This document shows positions 11,378 to 59,012 of a DNA stretch of 59,129 nt, one piece after another. How positions within the stretch are numbered: position 1 is the first letter of the stretch; each line of letters begins with the position of its first letter. A program made the position numbers and the translations under genes. Location of the stretch: the NCBI GenBank assembly GCA_903831805.1, contig CAIKZD010000016.1:1-59129 (forward strand), read 5' to 3'. This stretch comes from an uncultured bacterium. GTDB lineage: Bacteria; Patescibacteriota; Minisyncoccia; Moranbacterales; UBA2206. A model generated the notes under the pieces. The model did not search any database. It was not told where the DNA came from and worked only from the letters and a program-made list of their open reading frames with translations.

Positions 11378-11388
11378 AATCTGGGGTT

Positions 11389-11417
11389 GTAGAGACGAGG
11401 CATTGCCTCGTCTCTAC
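11389..11417. repeat. GTAGAGACG hairpin (copy 2, compensatory variant)
   Basis: GTAGAGACGAGG cattg CCTCGTCTCTAC followed by AATTTAGC, 12 nt upstream of the 9752..11377 gene start. Confidence 0.8.
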
Positions 11418-11485
11418 AATTTAGCAGGGCTAACCTTTTTAGGCAAATATTATCCACATCCTCCCTGTCGAGATTCGGTTAGTTG

Positions 11486-11494
11486 TGGTATAAT
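11486..11494 (+). promoter_or_regulatory. Candidate extended -10 promoter for the T4SS-like operon
   Basis: TGgTATAAT at 11486-11494, ~50 nt upstream of the ATG at 11543. The -35 match is weak. Confidence 0.35.
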
Positions 11495-11542
11495 TTTGAG
11501 TAGAATAATATGCAAGATATTTTCAGATTTAGAAAAGCTTAA

Positions 11543-13691: not shown

Positions 13692-13710
13692 AAAAATTTT
13701 TCCCATTTTC

Positions 13711-15891: not shown

Positions 15892-15898
15892 AACAATT

Positions 15899-17410
15899 AT
15901 GGATTTTTTAGCAAAACAACGGTCTCTTCCCGAACCGGTAAATACATTTTTCAGTTCAGATAATCCACGCTTAGAGCTGGAACGGTCTTGTTTTATGTAT
16001 GGAGTGCGAGATGAAAAAATTAAAAACATTTCCGGCCCAGTCGGTTTGATTTTTGTGGATGACGTCAAATTGGAAGATTTGCCAAAAATAATTTCAGAAA
16101 AATTGCAGTTGGACAAAAATATGGCCAATGGTTTAGCTTATGAGATAAACAAAAGAATTTTCAAGCCCTTCTTGGAGCACTTTACTGATGCTCAGAAACT
16201 ACTTGATGAATGGAGCAAGCAAAAAGCAGAGCCGATCATATCTGAAGACGCCGCTTGGCAAAAAGTGTTGGAGATTGAGCCGTGGATTTTGGAAGAACAA
16301 ATGGAAGAAAAAAAAGCGCAAAGACAAGTCGTGCAAAACCTGGATGAAGCTCAAACTAAGCTGGAAAAAATGACTTTAACTGCAGCTCTCCAAAAATATC
16401 CGGAAATCAATGAACAGTTGATCACGAGTAGCCGCATCAACATCAAAAGTTTTTCCGAGCCGGCCCGACCGAATGTCAAAAACTGGTTGTCTGATTACAC
16501 TTTCACCATGGGCTTTGACGCGCATGACAGCGCGGCGCGCGGGATTTATCTTTTTCGTAATGAAAATACTAAAATTCTGAATCAAGTGGATAAAGACAAA
16601 TTGAATTATCTTTTGCGTGCCTATGACACTGCCATGCCGGTGGAAATCAACTTGACCTTGAAACAAATTATTTTCCCGCCGCGCTTCGACTCGCCTCAAT
16701 TCGACAAGACGCCTCGCCAAAGCGAGGCAGGACCGCGCGTGACAAGAGGGAACGCATCCGCCTTCACTAGAGTTACGGCGGACAAGAAAGCTATAGTGAT
16801 CAAGCCCTCCCTCGTTAAAGCTATGGCGGGCGAAGCGGGCGAAGAAGAAAAAAAGGAGGAAGAGCCGGAGGACATTTTTGCCAAACTCCCGACTTTTTTG
16901 CAAAAAACTTTTTGGAAATCTTCCGCCCCAAAAAAAGTTTCCGCGCCGTTGTCTTCTCCGCCGGAAAAAGCGCTGCCTGGAAATTTACCACCTAGTGAAA
17001 AGACTGCTCCAAAATTGAGGATTGGCGGTACATTTACCATTTCTCGCGCGTCGTCATCTCAACCGCTAAAACCTAAGGCAGAAATGGAAAAACCACTTAC
17101 GCACGAGACCATTTTGCCATCCGCGCGGAATATGGCGCCAAAAACCGATAGTCTTAAAATAAATGTGCCGGTTAATCTGCCCACCGTTCCGCCTAAAACT
17201 CCCACTTCCTTAGGAAAAGTGACTGTTCCGGCGGCCGCGCTTGTCTCTAAACCCAAAATTGAATTCACGTCTCCACAAAAACTGCCATTCGAAAAACAAC
17301 TTGCAGCACCTGAAGCAGAAAAAGAAGTAGGGCCGCAGCCAATAAAAATAACTCCGATAAATTTTCACCGAGACTTGCCGTCTAAAAATATCGTTGACCT
17401 CAAAAAATAA
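15899..17410 (+). CDS. Hypothetical protein with Pro/Lys-rich C-terminal half
   Basis: 503 aa with no clear TM segment. The C-terminal ~200 aa are rich in P, K and short PxK-type repeats. It starts 7 nt after the upstream stop. Confidence 0.6.
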   Translation: MDFLAKQRSLPEPVNTFFSSDNPRLELERSCFMYGVRDEKIKNISGPVGLIFVDDVKLEDLPKIISEKLQLDKNMANGLAYEINKRIFKPFLEHFTDAQKLLDEWSKQKAEPIISEDAAWQKVLEIEPWILEEQMEEKKAQRQVVQNLDEAQTKLEKMTLTAALQKYPEINEQLITSSRINIKSFSEPARPNVKNWLSDYTFTMGFDAHDSAARGIYLFRNENTKILNQVDKDKLNYLLRAYDTAMPVEINLTLKQIIFPPRFDSPQFDKTPRQSEAGPRVTRGNASAFTRVTADKKAIVIKPSLVKAMAGEAGEEEKKEEEPEDIFAKLPTFLQKTFWKSSAPKKVSAPLSSPPEKALPGNLPPSEKTAPKLRIGGTFTISRASSSQPLKPKAEMEKPLTHETILPSARNMAPKTDSLKINVPVNLPTVPPKTPTSLGKVTVPAAALVSKPKIEFTSPQKLPFEKQLAAPEAEKEVGPQPIKITPINFHRDLPSKNIVDLKK

Positions 17411-17421
17411 AAAAACATTCC

Positions 17422-17817
17422 ATGATTTCCAATGTCCCACAATTCATCGACACCGAAGACAAAATCGTCGGCCCGCTCACAGCCAAACAACTCGGCTGGC
17501 TGGCTATCGGCGGAGTGCTTTTCCTTATCAGTTGGAATATGCTCGATACTTCCGCGGCTATTGCCGCCGCCATTATCATTGGGGGCATTTTTGGGTCGTT
17601 GGCATTTTACCGTCCCTACAATCAGTCCCTCTTGAAATTTATCATTTCCTCCGTTTCTTTTGTTTTTAATCCCAAGATGTATATTTGGAAAAGAAACTAT
17701 GCTAATATAAAGATAGTGGCTAAAGCGAAAACCAAAGCGCCGGAAGTTACTATCATCCGAAAAACTGTCAGTGAAAAGAAAATCGCCGATATTTCAAAAA
17801 TGTTGGATCAAAAATAG
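17422..17817 (+). CDS. PrgI-family (VirB3-like) small membrane protein
   Basis: 131 aa. The N-terminus VPQFIDTEDKIVGPLTAKQLGWLAIGG followed by two hydrophobic spans matches the PrgI-family signature. Confidence 0.75.
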   Translation: MISNVPQFIDTEDKIVGPLTAKQLGWLAIGGVLFLISWNMLDTSAAIAAAIIIGGIFGSLAFYRPYNQSLLKFIISSVSFVFNPKMYIWKRNYANIKIVAKAKTKAPEVTIIRKTVSEKKIADISKMLDQK

Positions 17818-17828
17818 GATTTAGACCA

Positions 17829-17932
17829 AATTAACTTAATCAAGAGTGCTTTCTCCGCAGAGGCTTCACCTCAACGGAGCTTATGCCTAGTAGAGGTGAA
17901 GCCTCGGCAATGTACAGCACTTTAAGTTAATT
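17829..17932. repeat. Compound hairpin element inside the operon
   Basis: Inner perfect 13-bp stem GAGGCTTCACCTC (17860-17872) / GAGGTGAAGCCTC (17893-17905). Outer arms are AATTAACTTAA...AGTGCT and AGCACTTTAAGTTAATT. Confidence 0.8.
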
Positions 17933-17970
17933 CAATATAAAAAATAAGACAGATTTTTGTAATTTTAATT

Positions 17971-18660
17971 ATGGAAGCTCTCTATTCTAAAAAACTGGAT
18001 AACAAAAAAACCACTGCCCCGACGCAGGATTTTTTAGACGTGGCCGAAATCAAAGAGGATGTCATTGTTTTGAAATCAGGCACGCTGCGCGCCGTGCTGG
18101 CGGTCAACGCTATTAATTTTGACTTGAAATCCAGTGACGAGCAAGAAGCCATTATAACGCAATATCAAAACTTTCTCAATTCCATCGATTTTCCCATCCA
18201 GATTTTGATCAGTTCAAGAAAGTTGAATATGAAAAAGTATATGGATTTCTTGACCGGCAAAGAAAAAGGGCAGTCGAATGAGCTTTTACGCATGCAACTG
18301 GCGGAATATCGCAGCTTCATGGAACAACTCTCAGTCGTCTCCAATGTGATGGAGAAAAAATTCTACATCATTGTCCCATTTTCGCCGATTGAGAATGAAA
18401 ACAAGGGATTTTTCAGTAATTTGACCAGCCTCATGAATCCGCAAAAAAACATTTTAGAGAAAAGAGAGAATTTTGAAACTTACAAAAACCAGCTCTATCA
18501 AAGAGTGGACCATATCATTGTGGCGCTTTCCGGCATTGGCCTACGTCTTGTGCCGCTGAAAACAGAAGAGCTGGTTGAACTTATTTTTGATTCTTACAAC
18601 CCGGAAACATTCAATAATAGCGAACTGAAAGACACTAACCAGTTAGAACTGGCCAAATAA
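17971..18660 (+). CDS. Hypothetical protein resembling the N-terminal domain of Gram-positive-type VirB4
   Basis: 229 aa. TQDFLDVAEIKEDVIVLKSGTLRAVLAVNAINFDLKSSDEQEAIITQYQNFLNSIDFPIQILISS follows the pattern I recall for VirB4/ConE-type N-termini (recall-based). Confidence 0.5.
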   Translation: MEALYSKKLDNKKTTAPTQDFLDVAEIKEDVIVLKSGTLRAVLAVNAINFDLKSSDEQEAIITQYQNFLNSIDFPIQILISSRKLNMKKYMDFLTGKEKGQSNELLRMQLAEYRSFMEQLSVVSNVMEKKFYIIVPFSPIENENKGFFSNLTSLMNPQKNILEKRENFETYKNQLYQRVDHIIVALSGIGLRLVPLKTEELVELIFDSYNPETFNNSELKDTNQLELAK

Positions 18661-18682
18661 AAAACCAAATATTGCTCAACGT

Positions 18683-20509
18683 ATGTTAAATATATTCAAA
18701 AAGAAAGAGGCGGTTGCGTCAGAACCGACGCCATCTAGCGATGTTTTAGAATCGGAAAAATATTATCAAGAAGGCTTGTCCCGCCTCAACGACCTGATCG
18801 CGCCTTCGGCCATTAAGATTGAGCCAAAATATATCCGCGTGGGCGAAACATTGGCGCAAACGATTTTCATCGTGGCTTATCCAAGATTTTTGCATAGCAA
18901 TTGGTTTTCGCCCATCATCAACATTGATATGCCGATTGACATCTCAATGTTCATCCACCCGATTGAAACTTATGATATTTTGAAAAGTCTCAAGAAGAAT
19001 GCCACGCGCATCGAATCGCAGATCCACATGGAACAGGAGAAAGGCATGATCCGCGATCCAGCCTTGGAAACCGCAGTCCAAGACATTGATAGCCTGCGCG
19101 ACAATCTGCAGCAGGGTACGGAAAAGTTTTTTCGCTTCGACCTCTATATCACGGCTTATGGAGAAACAGAAAAAGAGCTTTACGAAATCACTAAGTCCAT
19201 TGAGGCTATCTTGGAAGCGCAACTGGTGTATGTGAAGCCGGCCATTTTCAAAGCGGAACAAGGTTTTAATTCCACTTTGCCGCTCGCCAATGATGAATTG
19301 GACATTGGGACTTCCATGAACAGCGCCCCGTTGTCCACCACTTTTCCTTTTGTTTCTTCCACTCTTTCCAGTGACACTGGCATTCTCTATGGCATCAATC
19401 GACACAATAACAGCCTTATTATTTTTGATCGCTTCGAAATGGAAAACGCCAATATGGTGGTTTTCGCCAAATCAGGTGCGGGCAAAAGTTATACTGTCAA
19501 ATTGGAAGTTTTGCGTATGATGATGCTCGGGACTGATGTCATTATCATTGATCCGGAAAATGAATATAAGCATCTGTGCGAAACGGTGGGCGGCTCATTT
19601 GTAAAAATCTCTTTGAATTCCGGCAACCACATCAATCCGTTCGATTTGCCACGCGTGGGTGATGATGAGGATGCAGAAGACATTCTGCGGAACAACATCG
19701 CTGCGCTGCTCGGGCTTTTGCACATCATGCTGGGATCCATCACGCCGGAAGAGGATTCCATTTTAGACAGAGCGGTCCGTGAAACATATGCTATGCGCGA
19801 CATCACCTCCGAAGTCAATTTTAATGCCCTGCCGAAAGAAGCCTATCCGACCATGTCCGACCTCTACCAGATTTTGAGCAGTATGGAAGGCGGAGAAAAT
19901 CTGGCCATTCGCATGGAGAGATATACGGAAGGAGTTTTCTCCGGTTTTCTCAATAAAACTTCCACTGTCAAAGTTGACAATCAAATGATGGTTTTCAATA
20001 TCCGCGACATGGAAGAAGAACTGCGGCCGGTGGCCATGTATATCGTGATGCAATTCATTTGGAATGAAATGCGGACCAATGTCAAAAGGAGGTTGGTGCT
20101 GGTGGATGAAGCGTGGGTGATGATGAAATATGACGACGCCGCTTCTTTCATTTTTGGCATTGCGAAAAGATGCCGAAAATATTTTACCGGGCTGACCACC
20201 ATCACCCAGGATGTCAACGACTTCCTTAGCTCGCGCTATGGCAAGGCGATTGTGACCAATTCCTCCATCCAGCTTCTCTTGAAGCAATCACCGGCCTCCG
20301 TGGACATCATTTCAGAGACATTCTATCTGACCGAACAAGAAAAATTTCTACTCTTGGAATCGAATGTCGGGGAAGGCATTTTTTTCGCCGGTAACAAACA
20401 TGTGGCCATCAAAGTGGTGGCATCCTACGCTGAAGATCAAGTCATCACCACCGACCCGGCCCAATTGGAAGAAATTGAACAAGCCAAGAAAGAGTTCAGC
20501 GATGAATAA
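18683..20509 (+). CDS. virB4: VirB4/TraC-like type IV secretion ATPase
   Basis: 608 aa with Walker A KSGAGKSY (GAGKS at 19475..19489) and Walker B RLVLVDEAW (DE at 20105..20110). The C-terminal region TTITQDVNDF...SSIQLLLKQ is typical of VirB4/DUF87 ATPases. Confidence 0.85.
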   Translation: MLNIFKKKEAVASEPTPSSDVLESEKYYQEGLSRLNDLIAPSAIKIEPKYIRVGETLAQTIFIVAYPRFLHSNWFSPIINIDMPIDISMFIHPIETYDILKSLKKNATRIESQIHMEQEKGMIRDPALETAVQDIDSLRDNLQQGTEKFFRFDLYITAYGETEKELYEITKSIEAILEAQLVYVKPAIFKAEQGFNSTLPLANDELDIGTSMNSAPLSTTFPFVSSTLSSDTGILYGINRHNNSLIIFDRFEMENANMVVFAKSGAGKSYTVKLEVLRMMMLGTDVIIIDPENEYKHLCETVGGSFVKISLNSGNHINPFDLPRVGDDEDAEDILRNNIAALLGLLHIMLGSITPEEDSILDRAVRETYAMRDITSEVNFNALPKEAYPTMSDLYQILSSMEGGENLAIRMERYTEGVFSGFLNKTSTVKVDNQMMVFNIRDMEEELRPVAMYIVMQFIWNEMRTNVKRRLVLVDEAWVMMKYDDAASFIFGIAKRCRKYFTGLTTITQDVNDFLSSRYGKAIVTNSSIQLLLKQSPASVDIISETFYLTEQEKFLLLESNVGEGIFFAGNKHVAIKVVASYAEDQVITTDPAQLEEIEQAKKEFSDE

Positions 20510-20520
20510 CATTTTTATGT

Positions 20521-21081
20521 ATGGCATACGATCCACAAAAAAAACAAGCGATTTTGGCGGCCAGAAAAAAAGCTAAACAACAAAAAGCCAGAGAAACAAT
20601 CAGAAAAAACAATACCGGAAAAAACAAAGGGCAAGCTGCTAATACCATAAAAAACGCCAGGAACATGATCGAAAGCGCCACGCCGTGGGGATTCCTGGCT
20701 CTTTTGTCCAAGATAAATCTGTCCGATTGGCCGTACGCGCTGGCACTCGTGGCCGCCATTTTCAAAGATATTATGGATTTCATGGAAGCCACCGGGTTCG
20801 GATATGCTATCGTTTTGGTGCTTACTTTTATGTGCTCCATTTGGATTGCTATGATGATGCTCCTGGCCAGTGGTGGAAAAGGCCGACAAGATCAGAAGAT
20901 CATCCGCAGTTGGCTCATCCTTCTGTCCGGCACCACTGCAGAATTGATTTTCGGTATCGATGTCTTGCCTATTGAAACCCTGACCGTGCTCATTATATTC
21001 GCCTTAGCGCTCCTGGCCAAACAGCAAGCTGCCAAAGCAGAAAAAGCCAAAAAAAGCTCGTCACAAGAAGCTTACGCCTAA
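20521..21081 (+). CDS. Small polytopic membrane protein with Lys-rich termini
   Basis: 186 aa with a basic N-terminus (KKQAILAARKKAKQQKARE), three to four hydrophobic spans and a basic C-terminus. Confidence 0.6.
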   Translation: MAYDPQKKQAILAARKKAKQQKARETIRKNNTGKNKGQAANTIKNARNMIESATPWGFLALLSKINLSDWPYALALVAAIFKDIMDFMEATGFGYAIVLVLTFMCSIWIAMMMLLASGGKGRQDQKIIRSWLILLSGTTAELIFGIDVLPIETLTVLIIFALALLAKQQAAKAEKAKKSSSQEAYA

Positions 21082-21096
21082 ATTATTTTTAGTATT

Positions 21097-21756
21097 ATGC
21101 AATTGTCTACCCGTCATTTAGAAAAATTATCCCCGCACAAGGAACTCGTGGTCACGACCAGCGTGGCTATGCTTTGTCTTCTGCTGGCAGCTATTTTTCC
21201 GGCGGACAACGCCTTTCAATCCATCTCGAAAAATATTTTTTTTCTAGTTGCCCTGCCGATCCTCTACATCAAATTGATTTTGAAAAATGATCTCAGTCAG
21301 TGGGGTTGGAATTTGGCAAACAAAAAAACCGGAATGCTTTTGGCTGGTGGCGCATTCCTAGTGGGACTGGTTATCTTCTTTCTCATGATTAATTTTGCCG
21401 GTTTTTCATCCTATTACGTGATAGACCCACTCGTGAAAAACAATTTCGGTTTTTTCCTACTGTATGAGTTGGTTTTTTTCAATCTCTTTTTCTTCGCCCA
21501 AGAATTTTTCTTTCACGGTTTTATCCTTTCGGCCGCCCGTCAATTTTATATGCGAGCCATCTTTATCCAGTCAGCAATTTATTTTCTTACGCTTTTATTC
21601 GCTAAAACACCAATATTGCAATCCGCTCCGCTTATATATCTTTCTCTGGCGGGGGGATGGGTGACTTACAAGACGCGCTCTTTTGTCTACTCGTATATTT
21701 CCGGATTATTGTTTATAATAATATTAGATGCTTATATCATTCATTTAATAAAATAA
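21097..21756 (+). CDS. CPBP/Abi-like polytopic membrane protein (degenerate protease motifs)
   Basis: 219 aa with about six hydrophobic spans. AQEFFFHGF occupies the position of the CPBP EExxxRG motif, but later His motifs are not clear. Confidence 0.35.
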   Translation: MQLSTRHLEKLSPHKELVVTTSVAMLCLLLAAIFPADNAFQSISKNIFFLVALPILYIKLILKNDLSQWGWNLANKKTGMLLAGGAFLVGLVIFFLMINFAGFSSYYVIDPLVKNNFGFFLLYELVFFNLFFFAQEFFFHGFILSAARQFYMRAIFIQSAIYFLTLLFAKTPILQSAPLIYLSLAGGWVTYKTRSFVYSYISGLLFIIILDAYIIHLIK

Positions 21757-21762
21757 GTCGGT

Positions 21763-24441
21763 ATGAAAATAAAAAATATAAAAAAATATCTAGCCTTAAT
21801 TATCCTGCTGCTTCTTATGGCACCGGCTATTCTCGTTGTGCCGGCACAAGCAGCTGATCCTATTCAGGCGATATTGAATAATTCCGGTGGAGCAGCCGTT
21901 GAAGGCATGAATAGTATATTTAGTGACTTGGGGGTGGATAAGGGAGAGGTGAAAAATTCAGTGCAAACCATGAATGCTTCACGCCAGAAACAAACATCCC
22001 CACAGGTATCGCTTGAATTCAGCCCCAGCAATCCCAAATTAGGCGATCAGTTGTCGGCCACCGCCACTCCACTTTATTTCATAAACGATATTAAAAAAAT
22101 ATACTTTACCTGGTTCCTGAAACAAAAAGGTTGCGATCGGACAGATAATCCCGATGCTACTCAAAAAACAAAATGCGATCTCAATAATGATGGCCGCGTT
22201 GACATAGAAGACTATAAGATAAAAGCGATGCGCGTTTTGGCGAATGATGATTTCAGTTGGGAAAGTGCCGACTATTCGCATTCGGACGGAAAAAGCAAAC
22301 ACGATGCCGTTTATGGTGGCACGGATCAGCAGGGGAAAAAAGCGCATTGTTATGTGCAGGATGTTCAGTCCGGCGATGTCCATGAGATTGGTTGCAATTC
22401 GCACCTTTTTCCGGATGCTCCCGGCCAGAAAACCGGAGACAATTCTTTTGGCAAAGATGAAGAAAAATTTTGGCACACTGATCCGACGAGCGCGGATACG
22501 GCTCAATCGGGGAACACTGATGAAGCGAATGTGGCGGGACTCGGCTTGAATAAATTTTCTTGGAACTATACCCCGGGCGACCGATTAGGTGTGGTGGTGG
22601 AAGGCTCTTCCATTGAGCCCTCCCAAACAAGAGATGCCTCTTATCGCACGATGTGGGCCGCTCCGAAAGGGCTATGTTCCAATAGTACGATCCAATTGGG
22701 TAATAATTATCCGAAAGTCGCCACTGTTACGCTTTCAACTAAAGCTGACACGCCAGTGAGCGGGGAAACGACCACAGTGGTTGAAAAAACCACTCAAGAA
22801 CTGCTTAGTCAGCAAGGCGATTCAGGTACTGTCAGAACAACCGTGGTCGACATTACGACCGTCACCAATACTGCCACAGGCGAAGTGCTTTCTGAAAGCA
22901 CTGAAACGATTTCCACCAAAGAAGAAACTGTTGACCTGTCAGCTGAAAACGATCTGGCGCGTAAAGAGGGCGGCAGAACAGTTCAAGAAATTTCCAACGC
23001 TTCCGACCTGAATGACTGTTTGTATAGTAACTTGGTCACTCCCTCGGAAAATAGCCCAGAAAGTAATAAGATAGACGTGTCTCTTACTTATTCTCCCACT
23101 TCTCCGATAAACGACCCGACTGCTTATGGCGACCCGAAGTTGAGTAATGGCGATGATATTGTGGTTCAATCAAGCATTTCTAATGCGACCGACAACAACT
23201 ATTTGCAATACTCCTGGGAAGTTTTTATGTCGGACGATCCCAATCCGGATGATTGGGGCAGTCCTTTGCCTAAAGCATCTTTGCCCGGGGTGACTCAGAT
23301 GGAAGGTTTGGGAATCACTTCGCTTAAATTTAAATTAAACCTAGCTCACCCGAAAAAATATCTCAATGTTAAACTGACAGTCAAGGAGAATGCGGGACAA
23401 AGTTCCAGTGGGGACAATTTTTCGCGAAGAGGCCACACTAGCGTCCTAATCCCGATCACTTCTAGTAATAATAATATTAAAATTTTCAGCACCTTAGTTT
23501 CGGCGGTTGCTCCACCTAACATCTCCACGCCTTACGTCAGCATGAACAAAGAAATTTGCACTACTGGCACGGAAATGGCTATTTGCCCCGTCACTAAGAA
23601 CAGTATCATTGGGCTTAAGGTGAATGCCGCTTCCCTAACTGATTTTCTGTGGACAATCAACGGTGCGCCTGTTACCAATAAAGAATGTTTCTACAGCGAT
23701 TGCAATATCGATAAACAAACGGGGGTGGCTTATTTTCCGGCCCTAGCAGAAGTGGGGAAGAATTATACGGTGGCTTTAACGGCTACCAACCAAGAAACGG
23801 GGGCAAAGGTCAGCTTGTCTAAGACTATTCAAGTGATTGATCCGGCCATTACTATCTCTTCCGCGGATGAAAGTGTTTGTAAACCGGTTCTTTTAGGCAA
23901 CTATATCGATCTAAAAGAAAAATCCTGGCCTGATTATAGCAAGACCAATTTTTTGGGACTGGCGGACAAGCCGATAAAGCTGCAAGCCGATGTTAAAGGT
24001 TTCACGCCCTTGCCGGGAAATTTGACCTGGACAGTTGATGGGCAAGAGGTGACCGCCTCCAACGTCGCTACGCTGGGCTACACATTAGACGATACCGGCG
24101 GTATTATTCTGCCGGCCAAAGCGCTTGGGGAGGATTATGAGGTTTCCGCTACCACCTTTTATGCTCAAGATATTCTCACGAAAAACGCGCTGAATAAATA
24201 TTGGGGTGTTTCCTATGACCAATTTTATGAAAAGAAAGTTTCCAGCAAGATAAGTATAAAATTACAAGCCAGCACCGATATGGTTGCTTCTGCTCAAGCG
24301 AAAAAAATTATGGCTACTATTTATAGCGGTACCCCGGCTTATCTGGCCTTTCTTTTGAGGATTGCACTCACAGCCTTCGTTATCCTTTTTCTGTCGCAAC
24401 TGACGCTGACGTTTTTCCCTAAAATAAACAGTCTCGATTAA
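21763..24441 (+). CDS. Large secreted surface protein with C-terminal TM anchor
   Basis: 892 aa with a signal peptide (LLLLMAPAILVVPAQAA), a dockerin/EF-hand-like loop DLNNDGRVDIEDY, a Thr-rich segment and a C-terminal hydrophobic anchor (LTAFVILFLSQLTLTFF). Confidence 0.7.
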   Translation: MKIKNIKKYLALIILLLLMAPAILVVPAQAADPIQAILNNSGGAAVEGMNSIFSDLGVDKGEVKNSVQTMNASRQKQTSPQVSLEFSPSNPKLGDQLSATATPLYFINDIKKIYFTWFLKQKGCDRTDNPDATQKTKCDLNNDGRVDIEDYKIKAMRVLANDDFSWESADYSHSDGKSKHDAVYGGTDQQGKKAHCYVQDVQSGDVHEIGCNSHLFPDAPGQKTGDNSFGKDEEKFWHTDPTSADTAQSGNTDEANVAGLGLNKFSWNYTPGDRLGVVVEGSSIEPSQTRDASYRTMWAAPKGLCSNSTIQLGNNYPKVATVTLSTKADTPVSGETTTVVEKTTQELLSQQGDSGTVRTTVVDITTVTNTATGEVLSESTETISTKEETVDLSAENDLARKEGGRTVQEISNASDLNDCLYSNLVTPSENSPESNKIDVSLTYSPTSPINDPTAYGDPKLSNGDDIVVQSSISNATDNNYLQYSWEVFMSDDPNPDDWGSPLPKASLPGVTQMEGLGITSLKFKLNLAHPKKYLNVKLTVKENAGQSSSGDNFSRRGHTSVLIPITSSNNNIKIFSTLVSAVAPPNISTPYVSMNKEICTTGTEMAICPVTKNSIIGLKVNAASLTDFLWTINGAPVTNKECFYSDCNIDKQTGVAYFPALAEVGKNYTVALTATNQETGAKVSLSKTIQVIDPAITISSADESVCKPVLLGNYIDLKEKSWPDYSKTNFLGLADKPIKLQADVKGFTPLPGNLTWTVDGQEVTASNVATLGYTLDDTGGIILPAKALGEDYEVSATTFYAQDILTKNALNKYWGVSYDQFYEKKVSSKISIKLQASTDMVASAQAKKIMATIYSGTPAYLAFLLRIALTAFVILFLSQLTLTFFPKINSLD

Positions 24442-24449
24442 ACAAAAAA

Positions 24450-25325
24450 ATGAAAAGAAAAAAAATAATTTTCGCCATTATTGCGGCTTGCAATTTTTTT
24501 CCAGCTTTGGTTTTGGCTGCTTTTTCCTATACTCCGATGGAAGCTATTCCAGGTTTTGGCAAGCCAGCTGATTTTCCTACCTACATCATGGCGGTTTACA
24601 AATTTGGGCTTTGGACTATTGGCATTTCGGCCATGCTTATGATCGTTTTGGGCGGCTATATGTATCTGGTTTCGGCCGGCAATGCTTCCCAAACCGGTAA
24701 AGCCAAAGGTGTGATAGCTGACGCCATCGTTGGCCTGATTCTGGCCTTGGTTTCTTGGCTTTTGCTCTACACGATCAATCCTGACCTGGTGCAATTTAAT
24801 ATTGGCCAAACAACTTCTACTCCTGCTCCTAATCCTACTCCTCCTAATCCTAATCCTACTCCTCCTAATCCTACGCCTCCTAATCCTAAGCCCAATCCTA
24901 ATCCTCTGGCTAATTGTAGCAATCTTAACCCAGCATTGAACTCTGAATTACAAAATGCTTCTTCTCAAAGTGGAGTGCCGACATCAGTACTAGCGGCCTT
25001 TATGCAAAGAGAATGTACTCCGGCAATGTCTAATCCTAATGCTTGTTCATCGAACAATTCTTATGGCGCCGGTGGATCGATGCAGTTTACAGATCCCACT
25101 TGGAATACCTACAAGTGTTCCGGAAGCAAATTTAATCGGCAAGATGCGCTAAATTGCGCGGCAAAAAAAATCGCCAAAGACAGCGGAGGAGACTATAGTG
25201 ACGCAGGTCTGGCCAAAGCGGCGAAAAGATATTGCGGATCATGTACCGATCCCAAAGCCTGCGGAGGAGATTACTGCGATGGAATAATCAGAAATAATAA
25301 TGCCTACAAGAGTTGCGCAACTTAA
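24450..25325 (+). CDS. T4SS pilin-like (VirB2/TrbC-type) domain fused to an SLT-like, Cys-rich domain
   Basis: 291 aa with a signal peptide and two TM spans around GGYMYLVSAGNASQTGKAKG. A PNP-repeat linker precedes a C-terminal domain containing ...RECTP...GAGGSMQFTDPTWNTY (lytic-transglycosylase-like) and 10 Cys. Confidence 0.7.
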   Translation: MKRKKIIFAIIAACNFFPALVLAAFSYTPMEAIPGFGKPADFPTYIMAVYKFGLWTIGISAMLMIVLGGYMYLVSAGNASQTGKAKGVIADAIVGLILALVSWLLLYTINPDLVQFNIGQTTSTPAPNPTPPNPNPTPPNPTPPNPKPNPNPLANCSNLNPALNSELQNASSQSGVPTSVLAAFMQRECTPAMSNPNACSSNNSYGAGGSMQFTDPTWNTYKCSGSKFNRQDALNCAAKKIAKDSGGDYSDAGLAKAAKRYCGSCTDPKACGGDYCDGIIRNNNAYKSCAT

Positions 25326-25344
25326 TAAATATATTTATAAAAAT

Positions 25345-26589
25345 ATGACTCTGTTCCAAAAAACTTTGCGTGTTACAATTTTTATCACGATCTTCTTTAT
25401 ATCCTCAGTATTCACTAAACCCGCCTCGGCCCAGCTTGCTACATGCAATACCTTTGACTTTCCGTCTGTCCAAAATAATATTTTGCGTTTTTTCAATTGT
25501 GATTCGGGAGAAGTTCAAGAATTTAACGGGCAGAACGCGCTTGTTTCAATTTCCGGCCAAGAAAATTTAGGGGGAGGTGTGCATAGTTTTGTTTGGTCGC
25601 CGGATGGGAAAAAGGCCTTTGTGCTTTCAGAAAACGTTTTAGCAGCCGTACAGACGCTCAAATTTTATTCTTCCAATCGGGAGTTGAACTCGCTGAATTG
25701 GTGGTCTTATGATTTGGACACCGACCAGGCAACGCTACTGGATAAGGATATTCTTTCGCTGGGCTGGGCTTCCAATAATGCTGTCATATATAATCTGAAT
25801 AATAAGGCGTTGTATGTTTCCAATGCAGACCTGAGTAATCCGGTCAAACTAATGGATATTAAAGGCGACTCATCCGATATAAATGACATCTTGGCGTCTG
25901 TAAGCTTGGGCGGTGTAACTATTTTTCCAATGGAAAAAGGATTCTATTCGGTCGAGACAAGCAGTCATATAGCCACCTATTTCCCATTATCCGGTGGAAT
26001 TCAAAAAATCATTACCGACCCTTTCAAAGAAGATTATTTCATCATCAAATCAGGCAGTGCCTTGTATAAATTTACTGTGGCCGACAAGAAATTGGTGAGT
26101 ATCAATGATAGTTTCTCCGCCGATGATATGTCATTTTTAAACAATAGCAATTTAATTATCGTCGGAAAAGATGGTAAAGCTTACTCATATGACATTAGCT
26201 CAAAGGCAGAATTACCGATTCCGCTCAAGGCTGCCGGCAATATTTTCAAAGTATTTTTTTTAGGAAATCCAGACGAATTCGTGTTCACCATTGGAAAAAA
26301 GATATACAAGGGTAAAACGGATGGATCAATCACTTTACTTTCAGTGGATGGAATAGCTTCTAGCAGTTCCGAAATTCCCAATAATAACTCTTTGTCACAA
26401 AAGCAACCACTATCCACCCCGGCAAATACAGCAACAGTAAATACCACAACGGCAAATCAATCCAGTGCGGATAACAGTTTGAGTCCGACAGCCCTAATAA
26501 CTATCCTCGTTATCGTTCTGGTTATTATAGGTGTCGTGCTTATTTACAAAAGAGTATCTTCCAAAAAAAATCCTAGCGATAAATCATAA
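25345..26589 (+). CDS. Secreted beta-propeller-like protein with C-terminal TM anchor
   Basis: ORF 25300..26589 trimmed to the ATG at 25345 (MTLFQKTL..., signal-like). It has a PD40-like motif FVWSPDGKKAFVLS and a C-terminal anchor LITILVIVLVIIGVVLIY. Confidence 0.6.
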   Translation: MTLFQKTLRVTIFITIFFISSVFTKPASAQLATCNTFDFPSVQNNILRFFNCDSGEVQEFNGQNALVSISGQENLGGGVHSFVWSPDGKKAFVLSENVLAAVQTLKFYSSNRELNSLNWWSYDLDTDQATLLDKDILSLGWASNNAVIYNLNNKALYVSNADLSNPVKLMDIKGDSSDINDILASVSLGGVTIFPMEKGFYSVETSSHIATYFPLSGGIQKIITDPFKEDYFIIKSGSALYKFTVADKKLVSINDSFSADDMSFLNNSNLIIVGKDGKAYSYDISSKAELPIPLKAAGNIFKVFFLGNPDEFVFTIGKKIYKGKTDGSITLLSVDGIASSSSEIPNNNSLSQKQPLSTPANTATVNTTTANQSSADNSLSPTALITILVIVLVIIGVVLIYKRVSSKKNPSDKS

Positions 26590-26637
26590 GAATTGTCGAG
26601 AGGAATTTTAAATTTATATATCCTTAATTTTTAGATT

Positions 26638-27600
26638 ATGCACAAAAAATTGTTGTTAGCTGCTTGTTTAGTTTTTTTAACCAGCACTTCTCCTTTGTTT
26701 TTCTTGACTCCATATCCGACTAAGCCAAATACAGCGCTCGCGGCTAGTTGTACCGGGGAAAATGGAGAAGCAGGCACCTGTACGGCTTCGGCCACTGATA
26801 TTGCTTGTCCTACTGGGACAACCCAAGCTATATCTAAGGAGCCTTGCCCAAATGGCGGTCATTATTGTGTCAGTAAGACAGAAGGTACGGGCGCTAAGTG
26901 CCAAGCTGATAAGGGTACTTGCGTGTCTAATTCAATTGGCGGCAGTAGCAATTGTCCAAGTGGAACCAGTCCAGTTTCGGTCGCAAATGATTGTCCGTCG
27001 TTCAAGAGTTGCTGTGTAACAACTGATACTCCACCTACTCCTACTACTCCTGCTCCACCCCGTACACCGCTAGAAGAATGTAAGGTAAAATGCTACGCAT
27101 CTGGCACAGTCACTACGGGTAACTCCGACCTGGATGCATGCGTTAAAAAGTGCAATGAATCATATCCCATTAACCCCACTCCTACTGATCCTACTCCTAC
27201 TCCTCAAACCGGCAAAGGCCTTATCCCTTGCGGACATGGAGACAATCCGGCGGATGCTTGCACACTGTGTGATTTTATCATTGGCTTTAGGAAATTGATC
27301 GATCTGGCTTCAGAGTTGCTCATTACAGTGGCGGTCACGGGGATTTTCATTTCGGGTGTTATGTATATAGTCTCAGCCGGAAGCCAGCTCACAGAACAAG
27401 CCAAAAAATTCCTCTCCGCCAGCTTAATCGGTTTTGCCATCGTCTTGTCCGCTTGGCTTTTGGTCAACGTAGTGATGTGGGCGCTTTCCTTCAATCCGGA
27501 GATGAGTATCGGAAAAAAGGATTGGCACACTTTCGAGTGCACCAGTCAAAGCGCTTCCTCCTCCACTACTCCGACTGGATCCACCATCGCCGCCAAATAG
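26638..27600 (+). CDS. Cys-rich ectodomain fused to a C-terminal T4SS pilin-like domain
   Basis: 320 aa with a signal peptide and 18 Cys in ~190 aa, with PT-rich linkers. The pilin module follows: ...FISGVMYIVSAGSQLTEQAKKFLSASLIGFAIVLSAWLLVN. Confidence 0.7.
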   Translation: MHKKLLLAACLVFLTSTSPLFFLTPYPTKPNTALAASCTGENGEAGTCTASATDIACPTGTTQAISKEPCPNGGHYCVSKTEGTGAKCQADKGTCVSNSIGGSSNCPSGTSPVSVANDCPSFKSCCVTTDTPPTPTTPAPPRTPLEECKVKCYASGTVTTGNSDLDACVKKCNESYPINPTPTDPTPTPQTGKGLIPCGHGDNPADACTLCDFIIGFRKLIDLASELLITVAVTGIFISGVMYIVSAGSQLTEQAKKFLSASLIGFAIVLSAWLLVNVVMWALSFNPEMSIGKKDWHTFECTSQSASSSTTPTGSTIAAK

Positions 27601-27620
27601 GTTTTCGTTAAAATAAAATT

Positions 27621-28754
27621 ATGTCTATACTTAAAAAAATATTTTTTCTTTCGGTTTTTGTCTTTGTTTTGTCGCTGCTTTTTTGGGGCATCTATAAACT
27701 TTCTTTTAAAGATAATTCCGCCACTGTCGCGGATAAAACTTCGACTAAGCCCGCGACACCAGTCGCCGCCGCGAATAAGATCGAGCCGGTTTCTGGAGAA
27801 GCAGTCATTGCGCCGACTTTGGCGGCGGATGGGAATAGTCTGAACTATTTTTTGGAAAAATCAGGACAACTTTTGCAAGTGGATTTTTACGGCAAGGTGC
27901 AACAGACCCTCTCGGCTAAAAATATTTCCAATTTGTCGGATGCGTATTGGTCGATAGATAAATTGAAACTGGTCATTAAGACTAAGGCGTCCGATAATGG
28001 TGCAACCTTTTCTTTTTTGGATCTTGCTTCCGGAGAAACTAAACCCTTGAAAGACAATTTGGACGAGGTGGCGTGGCAGACCAATGCCAACCGGATCCTG
28101 TATAAATATTACAGTCCTGAGACGAAAGAGCGCACGCTGAATGTGGCCGATCCGGATGGGAGCAATTGGACTAAGATCGCGGATTTGAACTATAAAAGTC
28201 TATCTGTGGCGCAAATTCCCAAGACCGGGTTGATTTCTTTCTGGAATACCGGTGATGCCTACGTCCAAACAAATTTTCAAGCCATCCCACTGCTTGGCGG
28301 GACGGCGAAAACTATTCTCGCGACTGGTTTTGGCGCGGATTATCTGTGGAACTTTTCAGGCGATTGGGCCTTGATCAGTCACAGCGATTCTCAAGGCGGG
28401 GCCAAGATGGAATTGGGGATGGTGAATGTGAATGGTGGGGAGTATAAAAATCTAGGCATCCCGACTTTCATCGACAAGTGTGTTTGGGCGGAAAATGGCC
28501 AAGCCATCTACTATGCCTTGCCCGGAGGGATTCCTGACAATTCCGTCTTGCCCAATGATTATAAAGCCGGGAAGTTCAAAACTGCAGATACTTTCTGGAA
28601 AGTCAATATTAAGACCGGAGAAAAAACTCGTTTGATTGAGACGGCGGATATCCCCGGGCAATATGATGCCAGTCAACTATTTTTGAATAAAAGTGAAAGC
28701 CTGCTTTTTTTCGTGAATAAAATTGATGGCAAGTTGTATCGATTGACGCTTTAA
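27621..28754 (+). CDS. Membrane-anchored beta-propeller-like (TolB/PD40-like) protein
   Basis: 377 aa with an N-terminal anchor (FFLSVFVFVLSLLFWGIY) and repetitive beta-rich segments. Last gene of the co-directional block. Confidence 0.55.
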   Translation: MSILKKIFFLSVFVFVLSLLFWGIYKLSFKDNSATVADKTSTKPATPVAAANKIEPVSGEAVIAPTLAADGNSLNYFLEKSGQLLQVDFYGKVQQTLSAKNISNLSDAYWSIDKLKLVIKTKASDNGATFSFLDLASGETKPLKDNLDEVAWQTNANRILYKYYSPETKERTLNVADPDGSNWTKIADLNYKSLSVAQIPKTGLISFWNTGDAYVQTNFQAIPLLGGTAKTILATGFGADYLWNFSGDWALISHSDSQGGAKMELGMVNVNGGEYKNLGIPTFIDKCVWAENGQAIYYALPGGIPDNSVLPNDYKAGKFKTADTFWKVNIKTGEKTRLIETADIPGQYDASQLFLNKSESLLFFVNKIDGKLYRLTL

Positions 28755-28770
28755 AAATAGAATTGGTTTT

Positions 28771-29976
28771 TTATTTTAGCGCCAAGAAGTTGAGCCAGAA
28801 GACGACTGCTAAATCATTTTTGAAATAAGTGGTGTCAAAAAATCCATGCGCTAAGATATAGACCATGATACCTAAGGCCAAAATACTAATCGTGTTTTGG
28901 TTTTTGTTTTTCAATAGATCTCTGGTCAGCAAGAATGCCAGTCCTAGAAAACCGATGAGGCCCAATAGTCCGCCTGAGAGCCAAAGATCCAAATATAAAT
29001 TCTGCGGATGCGGGACGGCCCATTCCAGATAGGGCGGATAAAATTTTTGGTATTCCAAATATGCCTTTTGAAAATTAGCCGGACCAATGCCACGTACTGG
29101 GTTGTCTAAAATCATCTGTCCGGCTGAGCGCCAAATCGTCAATCGCGAGACTAAGGATGATCGCGGGCGAAGCTCTGTTAAGTTTTTGAATTTTTCACTA
29201 TTGATTTGAAAAGATAGAAAACTAAAAACCATTATGGTTAACGCGGTGAATACGATGAGTAGCCTCTTGGCTTTTCGTGAGACTGCCCGAGTCCAGAGAA
29301 CCACCCCGCTACCTAAGAGCATTGCCCCAAAAGTGGCGTAGGAAAGTGTGAAGAACAATGCTCCAGCGATAATGAACAGCGAGAAAATCTGCCAGCTATG
29401 GGCCCGTTGTTCTATTACTTGAGTCCCATCTTTTTTTTGGTTGTCATAACACAATCGCCAAAAACCAATAATGATGCCCGGCGCCAGATACATCGCCAAG
29501 TAATTAGGCGAGTTGAAAAAAGCTTCCAATCTTTCGTCATAAGTCAGTCGTCCGAGGAGCAAATACCCCCATGCAATTAGGGCCACAAAAAAAGCCGACT
29601 GGCCATAGACAAAAAAGATCTGCCTAATTTTTTCTTTGGCAATAACATCCGCTCCAATCAGCATGACTGCCAAGGGCAGGAGAAACCAGCTTTTTATGAT
29701 ACTGAGTGATTGCCAAGTCTGCCCATGGGAAAAAGTTGACCAAAAAAGTCCACCGAGCATCATGGCGCTACAAAAAATATATGGCCGATAAGCAGAATAA
29801 AAGGTTCTTATTTTTTCCGCTCGATAAAAAACCATCAGCCACCATAAACTAGCGCCGATTATCAAAATTTCCAGCACGTTCGTCCGCAATAGCCAAAGCT
29901 GCACCTTAATCAGATAAACCGGTAGGAAAAAAACGATGCCATAGATTAAATTTTCTAAGCTAAAGTATTGGCGCAT
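28771..29976 (-). CDS. O-antigen ligase-like (Wzy_C domain) membrane protein
   Basis: 401 aa with at least ten hydrophobic spans. An extracytoplasmic loop followed by HPQNLYLDLWLSGGLLGLIGF is typical of the Wzy_C family. Confidence 0.7.
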   Translation of the reverse strand: MRQYFSLENLIYGIVFFLPVYLIKVQLWLLRTNVLEILIIGASLWWLMVFYRAEKIRTFYSAYRPYIFCSAMMLGGLFWSTFSHGQTWQSLSIIKSWFLLPLAVMLIGADVIAKEKIRQIFFVYGQSAFFVALIAWGYLLLGRLTYDERLEAFFNSPNYLAMYLAPGIIIGFWRLCYDNQKKDGTQVIEQRAHSWQIFSLFIIAGALFFTLSYATFGAMLLGSGVVLWTRAVSRKAKRLLIVFTALTIMVFSFLSFQINSEKFKNLTELRPRSSLVSRLTIWRSAGQMILDNPVRGIGPANFQKAYLEYQKFYPPYLEWAVPHPQNLYLDLWLSGGLLGLIGFLGLAFLLTRDLLKNKNQNTISILALGIMVYILAHGFFDTTYFKNDLAVVFWLNFLALK

Positions 29977-31231
29977 AGTTTTCTGGGATATTGGAAAAAG
30001 CGATAATCATCAAAACGAGCGTCAAAACGACGGGCGAATAGAGGCCTGTTTCCACCACAGAATGCACGGCAAAGATAATGAGGCTCATCGCGGCACCAAG
30101 ATAGAGCTTGTCTTCAGGTGCTTTTTTCATAAAACTCCGGACAGCAAAAAATAAAACACCACTCCAAGCTATAGCTGTCAGTAGGCCCGCTTCTGCCGCC
30201 ACATCCAAGTAGGTGTTATGGGCATAAATCGGTTCTCGATAAGTGGCGAGGGGTGAAACCGTCAAAGGAAAATTGCCAATACCTACGCCGTGTGTAGGAT
30301 GTTCCAAAATAGTTTCGGCGGCTTTTTGCCACATAAAGAGTCGCCCAACATTAGAGCCTTCCGTCGCGTCAAAACTGGAAAAAAACCGCGAAGAAATCGG
30401 GCCGGGAATAATCATGGCAAGTGCTAGAAAAAGCATACCTAAAAGAAATGCAATTTTATATTTTCGCACCAGATGGCGTTGAAACACCAAGCCCAAGGCC
30501 AGTGTTCCGCCCAGCAAGCCCAAATAGCCGCCCCGAGAAAAAGTGAGCAAGTCCGCCAGAAAAATGGTGCCGGCACAAACTAACCATAACTTTTTTTTCT
30601 GTTCGAAAAACAACGCCAAGGCTAAAGGTAGCAGCAGGCCGAGGAACAGCGCGAACATGTGCGGATCAGGGAAAATGGCAATGGCCCGGAAATAGGTGTG
30701 CCCGGAAACATTCACTAGCCAGGAGGGATGAGCGAAAACCGCTTGGGAAAAAGTTTCGCCTAAAAAAATAACGGCTACATATTTTGCCCACAGAAGATAT
30801 AGTCGGTCGATGCCTAGCCAAAATTGGGCACTAAATTGCAAAATGCCTAGCATGGCCACTGCCATTCCGGAAACTACTAGCCAGGCAGCTACTTTTTTGA
30901 AAGCGGACTTATTTGTAACCACGCTGGCCACGACGAAATAAATTGGAAAAATTGAGAACAGGAAAGCCAACTTTCTTAGGCTCCAATCGACGTTTCTGGC
31001 AAAAAACAAGGAAAAGAAATTTAAAAAAAGAAAAAGCACGAGGAAGCCGGTCTGAAAACTATGGGCCAGCTTTATTTTTCTATCTCGCAAGCCTTTGGCT
31101 AGCCATAATAAAAAGACACCCAGAATAAGTACGCGGATAGACGCTAGGTCAACGCCAGGAGCTGGATTAAGCGCCACCTGGAAAGGCAGGTACGCCGCTA
31201 AAAGTAGCACGAGAGAAAACAACATATCCAT
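29960..31231 (-). CDS. O-antigen ligase-like (Wzy_C domain) membrane protein, paralog
   Basis: 423 aa, polytopic, with FSRGGYLGLLGG and HNTYLDVAAEAGLL motifs. Its stop overlaps the downstream paralog start by 17 nt. Confidence 0.7.
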   Translation of the reverse strand: MDMLFSLVLLLAAYLPFQVALNPAPGVDLASIRVLILGVFLLWLAKGLRDRKIKLAHSFQTGFLVLFLFLNFFSLFFARNVDWSLRKLAFLFSIFPIYFVVASVVTNKSAFKKVAAWLVVSGMAVAMLGILQFSAQFWLGIDRLYLLWAKYVAVIFLGETFSQAVFAHPSWLVNVSGHTYFRAIAIFPDPHMFALFLGLLLPLALALFFEQKKKLWLVCAGTIFLADLLTFSRGGYLGLLGGTLALGLVFQRHLVRKYKIAFLLGMLFLALAMIIPGPISSRFFSSFDATEGSNVGRLFMWQKAAETILEHPTHGVGIGNFPLTVSPLATYREPIYAHNTYLDVAAEAGLLTAIAWSGVLFFAVRSFMKKAPEDKLYLGAAMSLIIFAVHSVVETGLYSPVVLTLVLMIIAFSNIPENYAPIL

Positions 31232-58652: not shown

Positions 58653-59012
58653 ATGAGAAATAAAATTAAATCAATCGGTTATGGCTTGGTTTCCACGGCC
58701 ATATTGGCGGTCCCGGCTTTGGCTGGCGCTCAATTTGTTGCTCCAAACTCAACGAACTTGCCTACTAATAGCGTATTCACGATTATTACCAACATCATGA
58801 ATTGGATGTTAGCGCTGGTGGGCATCATCGGTGTAATCGGGTTTGCTTTGGCGGGACTGCTTTATCTGACAGCGGCCGGAGACGAAACTAGAATCACGAA
58901 AGCCAAGGGAGCGATGATCGCTTCCATTATTGGTGTGATTGTGGCTTTGGCCGGTTTGGTAGCGCTAAACTTTGCGAAGGGTTTGCTTGGCGGCGCTAAT
59001 ACTAATTTCTAG
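58653..59012 (+). CDS. T4SS pilin-like (VirB2/TrbC-type) protein
   Basis: 119 aa with a signal peptide (AILAVPALAGA) and two hydrophobic spans flanking AGLLYLTAAGDETRITKAKG. The C-terminus is GLLGGANTNF. Confidence 0.75.
   Translation: MRNKIKSIGYGLVSTAILAVPALAGAQFVAPNSTNLPTNSVFTIITNIMNWMLALVGIIGVIGFALAGLLYLTAAGDETRITKAKGAMIASIIGVIVALAGLVALNFAKGLLGGANTNF

Follow-up and report, generated by a model that had tools for sequence, protein, structure and literature searches.

We have identified two genes in which a VirB2-like type IV secretion system (T4SS) pilin hairpin is fused to additional, predicted extracytoplasmic domains. Both lie in a 59,129-nucleotide (nt) stretch of DNA (hereafter, the window; contig CAIKZD010000016.1 of assembly GCA_903831805.1) from an uncultured bacterium of the Patescibacteriota, order Moranbacterales. 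The first gene, open reading frame (ORF) 24450, joins the hairpin to a lysozyme-like GH23/SLT domain, and the second, ORF 26638, carries Cys-rich modules ahead of its hairpin. With a probability of roughly 0.55, we favor the explanation that ORF 24450 encodes a pilin-anchored, VirB1-like wall hydrolase and ORF 26638 a surface-display subunit of a monoderm-type T4SS. The fusions suggest that wall cutting is built into pilin-family proteins, at least in Moranbacteria, which would be an answer to the "missing VirB1" of these systems and bears on how ultrasmall epibionts pass a secretion machine through the cell wall, perhaps into the host.

Pilin hairpins fused to hydrolase-like and cysteine-rich domains

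The two fusions and the two unfused pilin genes of the window have the following features.

24450–25325, plus strand: ORF 24450, 291 aa; signal peptide, VirB2-like pilin hairpin, Pro-rich linker and GH23/SLT-like domain
24450–24527, plus strand: predicted signal/leader peptide, aa 1–26, MKRKK and a hydrophobic core, VLA/A (hydropathy; N-terminal helix in the AlphaFold2 (AF2) model; cleavage presumed)
24528–24803, plus strand: pilin module, aa 27–118; YTPMExIPGF motif, helix 42–74, loop SAGNASQTGKAK, helix 79–109, INPDLV (PF18895, hhalign, AF2)
24804–24908, plus strand: Pro/Asn/Thr-rich (PNP) linker, aa 119–153 (sequence; predicted local distance difference test (pLDDT) <50 at residues 116–149)
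24909–25322, plus strand: 10-Cys GH23 (SLT/goose-type lysozyme-like) domain, aa 154–291 (AF2, Foldseek, conserved residues)
25011–25013, plus strand: predicted catalytic Glu188
aa 209–213 of ORF 24450: G-S-M-Q-F motif
26638–27600, plus strand: ORF 26638, 320 aa; signal peptide, two Cys-rich beta modules, CX3C helical hairpin, VirB2-like pilin hairpin and short tail
26749–27018, plus strand: two ~40-aa Cys-rich modules, aa 38–78 (5 Cys) and aa 88–127 (6 Cys), predicted to be beta-rich
27079–27153, plus strand: CX3C-x15-CX3C helical hairpin, aa 148–172, with Pro/Thr linkers on both sides (predicted helices 144–154 and 163–175)
27214–27546, plus strand: pilin module of the "PCG...ACTLC" subtype, aa 193–303; helices 208–246 and 252–285, loop SAGSQLTEQAKK (PF18895, hhalign)
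57963–58595, plus strand: stand-alone tandem pilin of 210 aa with two modules (PF18895, PF04956, NF045849)
58653–59012, plus strand: stand-alone single-module pilin, 119 aa (PF18895, E 1.3e-10)

A hidden Markov model (HMM) built in this analysis was used to search the window, in 660 ORF fragments from all six frames, for VirB2-like pilin modules. Exactly five modules were found, in four ORFs (full-sequence E-values from 3e-20 to 4e-43), and no sixth. Five modules sharing a motif had been proposed in a first reading of the letters (the original prediction), whose quoted peptide strings and ORFs are all present where it had placed them. Read strictly, the regular expression that it gave fits just two of the five strings, its last positions being mis-specified, and it has no match in 100 shuffles of the window; the shared motif itself is real. 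Pfam T4SS_pilin (PF18895) matched all four ORFs, with E 2e-22 for ORF 57963, E 1.3e-10 for ORF 58653 and E 5e-6 for ORF 26638 (26.8 bits, slightly over the 26.6-bit cut-off). ORF 57963 also passed TrbC/VirB2 (PF04956; E 2.5e-9) and scored 39.9 bits (E 2.6e-10), against a cut-off of 40, with the NCBIfam Mbov_0395 pilin-like model (NF045849). All 21 members of the ORF 24450 alignment matched PF18895 at E <= 0.01. Profile comparison by hhalign related the fused hairpins to the stand-alone pilins of the window at 98.7% (E 1.8e-16) for the ORF 24450 type and 96.9% (E 1.6e-10) for the ORF 26638 type, and the two fused types to each other at 98.5%. By these profiles, the fused two-helix modules are members of the VirB2-like T4SS_pilin family, as had been proposed for them. 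The fusion proteins, with 291 and 320 aa and folded extra domains, are not pilins of the small, unfused kind; the other two pilin ORFs (the 210-aa tandem and the 119-aa protein) are without an added non-pilin domain. The latter are the only unfused pilins of the window, 37 kb away from VirB4, and their genes come directly after a solute-binding-protein gene (56514–57929) and a methyltransferase gene. If a pilus exists, they are its likely major subunits.

ORF 24450 was predicted to consist of an N-terminal pilin module, a PNP-repeat linker and a 10-Cys, lytic-transglycosylase-like domain, and each of these parts was recovered. The linker lies at residues 119–153, the string GAGGSMQFTDPTWNTY at residues 206–221, and 10 of the 11 Cys in the C-terminal domain, with the eleventh in the signal peptide. 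Modelling with a 21-sequence alignment gave pLDDT values of 77–90 over the pilin module and mostly >90 across residues 150–290, on either side of a disordered linker of ~35 residues. A Foldseek search of the Protein Data Bank (PDB) with the full-length model was dominated by the lysozyme domain: among the matches listed, 50 of 50 have a GH23-type fold (probability 0.97–1.0, best E 2.3e-3, TM-score ~0.5 on the target), including g-type lysozymes, MltF, Slt70, MltE, MltC and a family-23 chitinase. In the 21 sequences, there is no variation at E188 and Q212 and almost none at M211 and G209; in the alignment, E188 and the M-Q pair correspond to the E-S and M-Q motifs of the canonical SLT subgroup. 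The window subfamily was related to that subgroup by hhalign at 74% (E 2.9e-5), and Pfam SLT (PF01464) was found at E <= 0.01 in six of the 21 aligned homologues (best 1.1e-12). As modelled, the C-terminal domain has a lysozyme-like GH23 fold with conserved catalytic residues, and we consider it a divergent GH23/SLT-like domain with presumed enzyme activity.

ORF 26638 has 20 Cys, 18 of which fall within residues 38–211. The original prediction of a ~190-aa domain with 18 Cys was correct in its count; C198, C208 and C211 are part of the pilin module, and the remainder forms three mini-modules between Pro/Thr linkers and not one domain. The full C..C..C..C..CC pattern is in the module at aa 88–127. 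This spacing recalls beta-defensin-type patterns, a resemblance that we treated as a coincidence. The CX3C hairpin gave a weak, non-significant Foldseek resemblance (E ~ 1) to alpha-hairpinin/vicilin-buried peptides. A CX3C...CX3C module (CKVKC...CVKKC in ORF 26638) recurs as a spacer, in duplicate as CEKWC...CKTGC, in the hairpin-SLT linker of the closest orthologue (L001/P0003, ~10350–10650). An exhaustive HMMER search of 1.84 billion representative proteins returned three real relatives of the Cys-rich double module (the query's own entry and two others), by which measure the double module is lineage-restricted. Of 79 related fusions, 13 (0.66 expected) have its Cys spacing on the N-terminal side of the hairpin. 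One relative (P0229) has three Cys modules, a hairpin and a C-terminal HxH-type domain; cargo can thus occupy both ends of the hairpin. The Cys-rich beta modules and CX3C hairpin of ORF 26638 are most likely binding or spacer modules.

Hydropathy and AF2 gave the same arrangement in both fusions: a leader followed by two hydrophobic helices with a short polar loop. The sequences imply that both ends of each hairpin face outward (out-in-out), which would make the fused domains extracytoplasmic. The leader, the out-in-out hairpin with its Lys-containing loop, the peptidoglycan-directed enzyme and the disulfide-rich cargo (10 Cys in the fused domain of ORF 24450 and 18 in that of ORF 26638) all indicate that these domains are outside the cell. 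The four invariant Cys of the ORF 26638 pilin module (198, 208, 211 and 301) lie before helix 1 and after helix 2, a placement that is plausible solely with both ends on the oxidizing outer side. Outward placement would hold with or without cleavage of the leader, which is itself presumed. The extracellular domains of the original prediction are consistent with the signal peptide and out-in-out hairpin, and the predicted topology does not place them in the cytoplasm. Lipobox-like strings near the N-terminus (IAAC at aa 11–14 and LAAC at aa 7–10) were considered as lipoprotein signals and rejected, the Cys being too near the N-terminus and not conserved in homologues.

Cargo and synteny in related loci

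A homologue search with ORF 24450 returned 95 further proteins, and the closest homologues are from Moranbacteria and Parcubacteria metagenome-assembled genomes (MAGs). Many of these relatives carry precomputed labels for PF18895 together with PF01464 (SLT) or PF18896 (SLT_3), and others for PF18895 with Peptidase_C39 or VanY/M15 (the VanY/M15 labels being on P0093). SLT and SLT_3 cargo was confirmed by Pfam scans in this analysis. Eighty related loci were taken from one genome scan and chosen by similarity to the fusion. Synteny was checked within 10 kb of the fusion gene, and figures of ~60 of 80 were counted by eye from the locus table. The C-terminal cargo of the 80 loci was assigned to several classes with no relation to one another, as follows.

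Canonical SLT: 12 loci
SLT_3-like: 6 loci
Window-type SLT: 3 loci
HxxxD/HxH class A: 30 loci
HxxxD/HxH class B: 14 loci
Others: several loci

In the HxxxD/HxH cargo, H224, D232, H282 and H284 are invariant in 18 sequences (strings SxHYxGxAIDI...HIHL). No Pfam match was obtained for this cargo save a weak VanY hit (E 0.087, L075), and no PDB profile match. From their motifs, these classes may be LAS/M15-like zinc peptidases, an assignment that Pfam and PDB profiles did not confirm.

Every column that is invariant across the 80 orthologues falls in the hairpin. Different cargo classes (SLT, SLT_3 and zinc-peptidase-like) are found on hairpins that are 83–89% identical, and the hairpin of the window is closer to hairpins with SLT_3 or canonical SLT cargo (82–84%) than to a hairpin with its own cargo type (71%). 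Unfused forms of this hairpin subtype are found as well, in proteins of 115–190 aa with 70–79% identity. Taken together, the invariant columns, the different cargo on near-identical hairpins and the unfused forms point to the hairpin as a conserved chassis on which cargo is swapped as cassettes. The original prediction had called such fusions unusual. At this locus they are the rule in the lineage, with extensions on 92 of 100 module-bearing ORFs in the 80 loci, a proportion biased by the selection of the loci for similarity to the fusion.

The full gene order (VirB6-like, p15899, PrgI, VirB4N, VirB4C ... large surface protein, fusion, second pilin, TolB-like) was found in 22 of the 80 loci, and loci with the full T4SS order are mostly labelled Moranbacteria. 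A downstream block (two Wzy_C genes, a GT2 gene and others) is kept in ~60 of the 80. Many MAGs (L018, L020–L023, L034, L036–L037 and others; TPA_asm records) are titled "uncultured Bdellovibrionales" or "uncultured Gammaproteobacteria" and carry the Moranbacteria-type locus with pilin fusion, TolB-like gene and Wzy_C genes; these titles probably belong to mislabelled Patescibacteria bins.

The gene array and the role of the fusions

The fusions lie in a co-directional array of ~17 kb (11543–28754) with gaps of -14 to 48 nt and one exception of 153 nt. Its order is a TSP3-repeat protein, two unknown proteins, a VirB6-like candidate, PrgI/VirB3, a split VirB4, two small membrane proteins, an 892-aa surface protein, the pilin-SLT fusion, a membrane protein, the Cys-rich pilin and a TolB/PD40-like protein. 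Its annotated genes, besides the fusions, are listed below.

11543–12745, plus strand: first array gene; secreted protein with a Thr/Ser-rich tail and calcium-binding repeats of the bacterial thrombospondin type-3 family (TSP3_bac, E 4e-13)
13711–15891, plus strand: polytopic membrane protein with multiple transmembrane (TM) helices, candidate VirB6 analogue (very weak TrbL/VirB6 hint, E 0.92)
17422–17817, plus strand: PrgI/VirB3-like protein (PF12666, E 1.1e-8)
17971–18660, plus strand: VirB4 N-terminal part, TrsD/TraD-like (TrsD E 1.3e-7; aligns with residues 92–284 of the VirB4_plasma model)
18683–20509, plus strand: VirB4 ATPase part (NCBIfam conju_CD1110, E 2.4e-114; Pfam TraG P-loop, E 1e-30)
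21097–21756: 219-aa polytopic protein (sub-threshold Rce1-like/CPBP intramembrane protease hint, E 0.019; QEFFFHG motif)
21763–24441, plus strand: secreted surface protein of 892 aa, with a weak dockerin-like hint and a TM helix at the C-terminus; 8-nt gap to the pilin-SLT gene
25345–26589, plus strand: membrane protein gene between the two fusions, 414–429 aa, C-terminal TM helix
27621–28754, plus strand: TolB/PD40-like beta-propeller candidate of 377 aa, anchored at its N-terminus (DUF5050 and PD40 hints, both weak)

The two ORFs of the split VirB4 are 22 nt apart, each with a syntenic counterpart in 22 related loci; the VirB6-like candidate is syntenic in 17 of 80 and the 892-aa protein, which has no assigned family and may be an adhesin or surface component, in 28 of 80. 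The flanks of the related loci yielded no homologue of the TSP3_bac protein. In 24 of 80 loci, among them ones without a T4SS cluster (L021, and L058 only at a looser threshold), the 219-aa protein is conserved immediately ahead of the large surface protein and pilin fusion; to regard it as a candidate processing enzyme is pure speculation. The product of 25345–26589 is weakly similar to that of 27621–28754 (BLASTP E 0.008). In 65 of 80 loci, the gene directly after the fusion is TolB-like, whatever the cargo class, and its product is a candidate partner for the hairpin, the constant part of the fusions. No relaxase or coupling protein was seen in the T4SS cluster, and a promoter and terminator scan of 11000–29500 was close to shuffled background. 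The array is flanked by housekeeping genes (PNPase, LspA, ComM-like, KsgA and UbiA). Converging on its end, at 28771–31231 on the minus strand, are two adjacent Wzy_C (O-antigen-ligase-like) genes and a GT2 glycosyltransferase gene. A second wall-active protein of the window, a DUF348-G5-DPBB_1 protein (RpfB/YabE-like, with a lytic-transglycosylase-type DPBB), is encoded outside the T4SS array at 7582–8544, 10 kb upstream of VirB4 and among housekeeping genes.

Profile scans of the array proteins revealed no recognizable hydrolase besides the pilin-SLT fusion. ORF 24450 is thus the only recognizable peptidoglycan hydrolase in the 17-kb array, and we propose a VirB1 role for it. Both fusions would be inserted out-in-out in a presumably Sec-dependent manner, with the conserved S-A-G-x...A-K loop toward the cytoplasm and both ends outward. 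In ORF 24450, the flexible linker of ~35 residues would hold the disulfide-rich GH23 domain at the outer face of the membrane. There, the hydrolase would act in the role of VirB1, PrgK or TraG by locally cutting peptidoglycan at the site of T4SS/pilus assembly, and possibly also where the T4SS/pilus touches the host. In ORF 26638, the same chassis would display the two Cys-rich beta modules and the CX3C hairpin. The original prediction had suggested effector and adhesin domains; the SLT-like domain looks less like an effector than like a monoderm T4SS wall hydrolase of the missing VirB1 type. A functional tie of the fusions to the T4SS is suggested by gene order and family membership.

Several results weigh against this explanation. 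The PF18895 match of ORF 24450 (E 2e-5, 25.0 bits) is slightly under the 26.6-bit cut-off, and PDB sequence-profile searches with the pilin modules and full fusion alignment gave no meaningful match to solved VirB2/TraA or SLT structures. No SLT structure was matched when the ORF 24450 alignment was used, and Pfam SLT scored ORF 24450 at E 0.026 (14.5 bits versus a cut-off of 21.3). The third SLT motif, A-Y-N-x-G, is present as AGYNSG or AGYNGG in the canonical subgroup and is replaced by RYCGSC in the window subfamily; this loss and the sub-threshold SLT score are the reasons for calling the domain divergent. The AlphaFold model of ORF 26638 was poor (pLDDT 55), and Foldseek returned nothing significant for this low-confidence model. 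Lastly, ~58 of the 80 loci have no VirB4 within 10 kb of the fusion, its neighbors there being housekeeping or envelope genes. The proximity to VirB4 noted in the original prediction is true of the window, where VirB4 lies 4–6 kb upstream in the same array, and fails in most related genomes.

The synteny results speak for a different explanation, in which the PF18895-type hairpin is a lineage-specific two-helix anchor and the fusion, with its TolB-like partner, is a housekeeping envelope enzyme that would remodel the wall for growth, division or envelope-glycan assembly. It would be unrelated to type IV secretion, and its adjacency to VirB4 in the window incidental. The fusion, the 27621 homologue and mostly the downstream genes are syntenic in ~60 of 80 loci, versus ~22 with a T4SS cluster upstream; ribonucleotide reductase and peroxiredoxin genes are upstream in L060, and the block directly follows LspA in L021 and L058. 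All cargo types also read as peptidoglycan-active, like autolysins. We nevertheless regard this explanation as improbable. The hairpin belongs to a family that is defined by T4SS clusters and often found in them (in 1135 of 1948 assemblies, pilin genes were located close to virB4; PMC12102498), and its loop and helices show the residue conservation of stand-alone pilins. Swaps between glycosidase and peptidase among close relatives would be unusual for a housekeeping function, and distance from VirB4 is weak evidence because Patescibacteria T4SS genes are often dispersed.

The conservation of the hairpin could also be read as pointing to a filament. It is possible, though again we think it doubtful, that VirB4 extracts the fusions and that they are polymerized with the stand-alone pilins (57963 and 58653) as minor subunits of a VirB2-type filament, where the hydrolase and Cys-rich modules on the filament surface or tip would act on the cell wall of the host, or of the producer itself. 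The fused hairpins keep the invariant residues of stand-alone pilins, more than a plain anchor needs, and their subtype also occurs unfused. Both termini face outward, the Pro-rich linkers are long and flexible, and cargo is swapped on near-identical hairpins as in polymorphic effector systems. In solved conjugative pili, both subunit termini are on the surface. Such a pilus would require that a 15–20 kDa domain per subunit be accommodated, which may clash with tight pilus packing, and no immunity-like gene co-varies with the cargo, the neighbor 27621 being constant across cargo classes. A Patescibacteria T4SS pilus has not been observed, according to the literature consulted. T4SS and pilins are essential for the epibiotic growth of Saccharibacteria in a role that is unknown (PMC10633639, PMC11665869). 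If true, an armed pilus would provide a concrete role for the essential Patescibacteria T4SS and the first effector domains fused to a T4SS pilin; if the fusions are only membrane-tethered, they are a more modest addition, a new type of anchor for VirB1-like enzymes.

An assembly error, frameshift or ORF miscall joining pilin and hydrolase genes might be suspected from the stand-alone genes of the same hairpin subtype (115–190 aa) and from short versions at this position in L012 and L020, and is excluded by an identical 291-aa protein on at least 18 independent contigs, by 79 complete orthologous ORFs with the frame intact through hairpin, linker and cargo (most bearing distinct species labels, with each GTDB species represented by one genome) and by public annotations that record PF18895 + PF01464 architectures. 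A phage holin-endolysin cassette was likewise rejected, given the signal peptide, the conserved chromosomal site among housekeeping genes and the lack of phage genes.

Comparison with known systems

The T4SS clusters of Patescibacteria contain essential VirB2-like pilins in arrays, with essentiality found in Southlakia epibionticum and a role described as completely unknown (PMC10633639, PMC12102498, PMC12857230, PMC11665869). They are the only monoderm T4SSs with VirB2-like pilins (PMC12857230). VirB1 is reportedly missing from most of their genomes (PMC12102498, PMC10633639), and it has been suggested, in a survey that used PF18895 and reported VirB1 homologues as rare, that the pilus does not need VirB1 (PMC12102498). 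Searches with VirB1 profiles that require >50% coverage could miss pilin-hydrolase fusions. A targeted term search of Patescibacteria T4SS papers found no mention of pilin-hydrolase or pilin-Cys-rich fusions (PMC10633639, PMC12102498, PMC12857230). The fusion proteins and their combined Pfam labels are already in public databases, and a description of the design was not found in the literature searched.

Published pilin arrays of Patescibacteria (Southlakia epibionticum ML1 and Nanosynbacter TM7x) resemble the genes of the window in phylum-level group, in Pfam family and in having several divergent paralogues per genome. They are similar as well in the chromosomal location of an MPF-FATA-like VirB4 cluster, close to housekeeping genes such as KsgA (PMC12102498), with no relaxase or coupling protein seen in it, and differ in that the published pilins are small. 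The Mbov_0395 family of Mycoplasma integrative and conjugative elements (ICEs; NF045849) likewise places a VirB2-like two-helix protein, of a wall-less or monoderm lineage, beside a VirB4_plasma-type ATPase, but is small and unfused, and it left the two fusions of the window unmatched at E <= 0.01. The VirB2/TrbC/TraA pilins (PF04956) and PF18895 share with the fusions a leader, two hydrophobic helices, a short polar Lys-containing loop and termini outside, and are encoded with VirB3/VirB4/VirB6-type genes. Canonical members are ~70–130 aa when mature and unfused, whereas the proteins described here have 291 and 320 aa and a folded, predicted extracellular domain at the C- or N-terminus.

Specialized effectors of type VI secretion systems (T6SSs), such as evolved VgrG, PAAR and Hcp-ET proteins, use a conserved structural subunit as a chassis for interchangeable cargo. 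By analogy, the fusions combine a chassis with predicted wall-degrading cargo that is swapped between close relatives, and an armed pilus would be comparable to these effectors; the T6SS is an unrelated machine without homology, and no cognate immunity gene is evident here. The closest functional parallel under the explanation that we favor would be with VirB1-type hydrolases (PrgK of pCF10, TraG of pIP501, TcpG, CD419 and TrsG), which are membrane-anchored extracytoplasmic peptidoglycan hydrolases encoded in T4SS clusters and are modular, with variable catalytic domains (SLT and/or peptidase). Monoderm VirB1-type hydrolases are anchored by a plain N-terminal TM helix. In ORF 24450, unlike these enzymes, the anchor is predicted to be a signal peptide with a VirB2-like hairpin, and the SLT domain represents a divergent 10-Cys subfamily.

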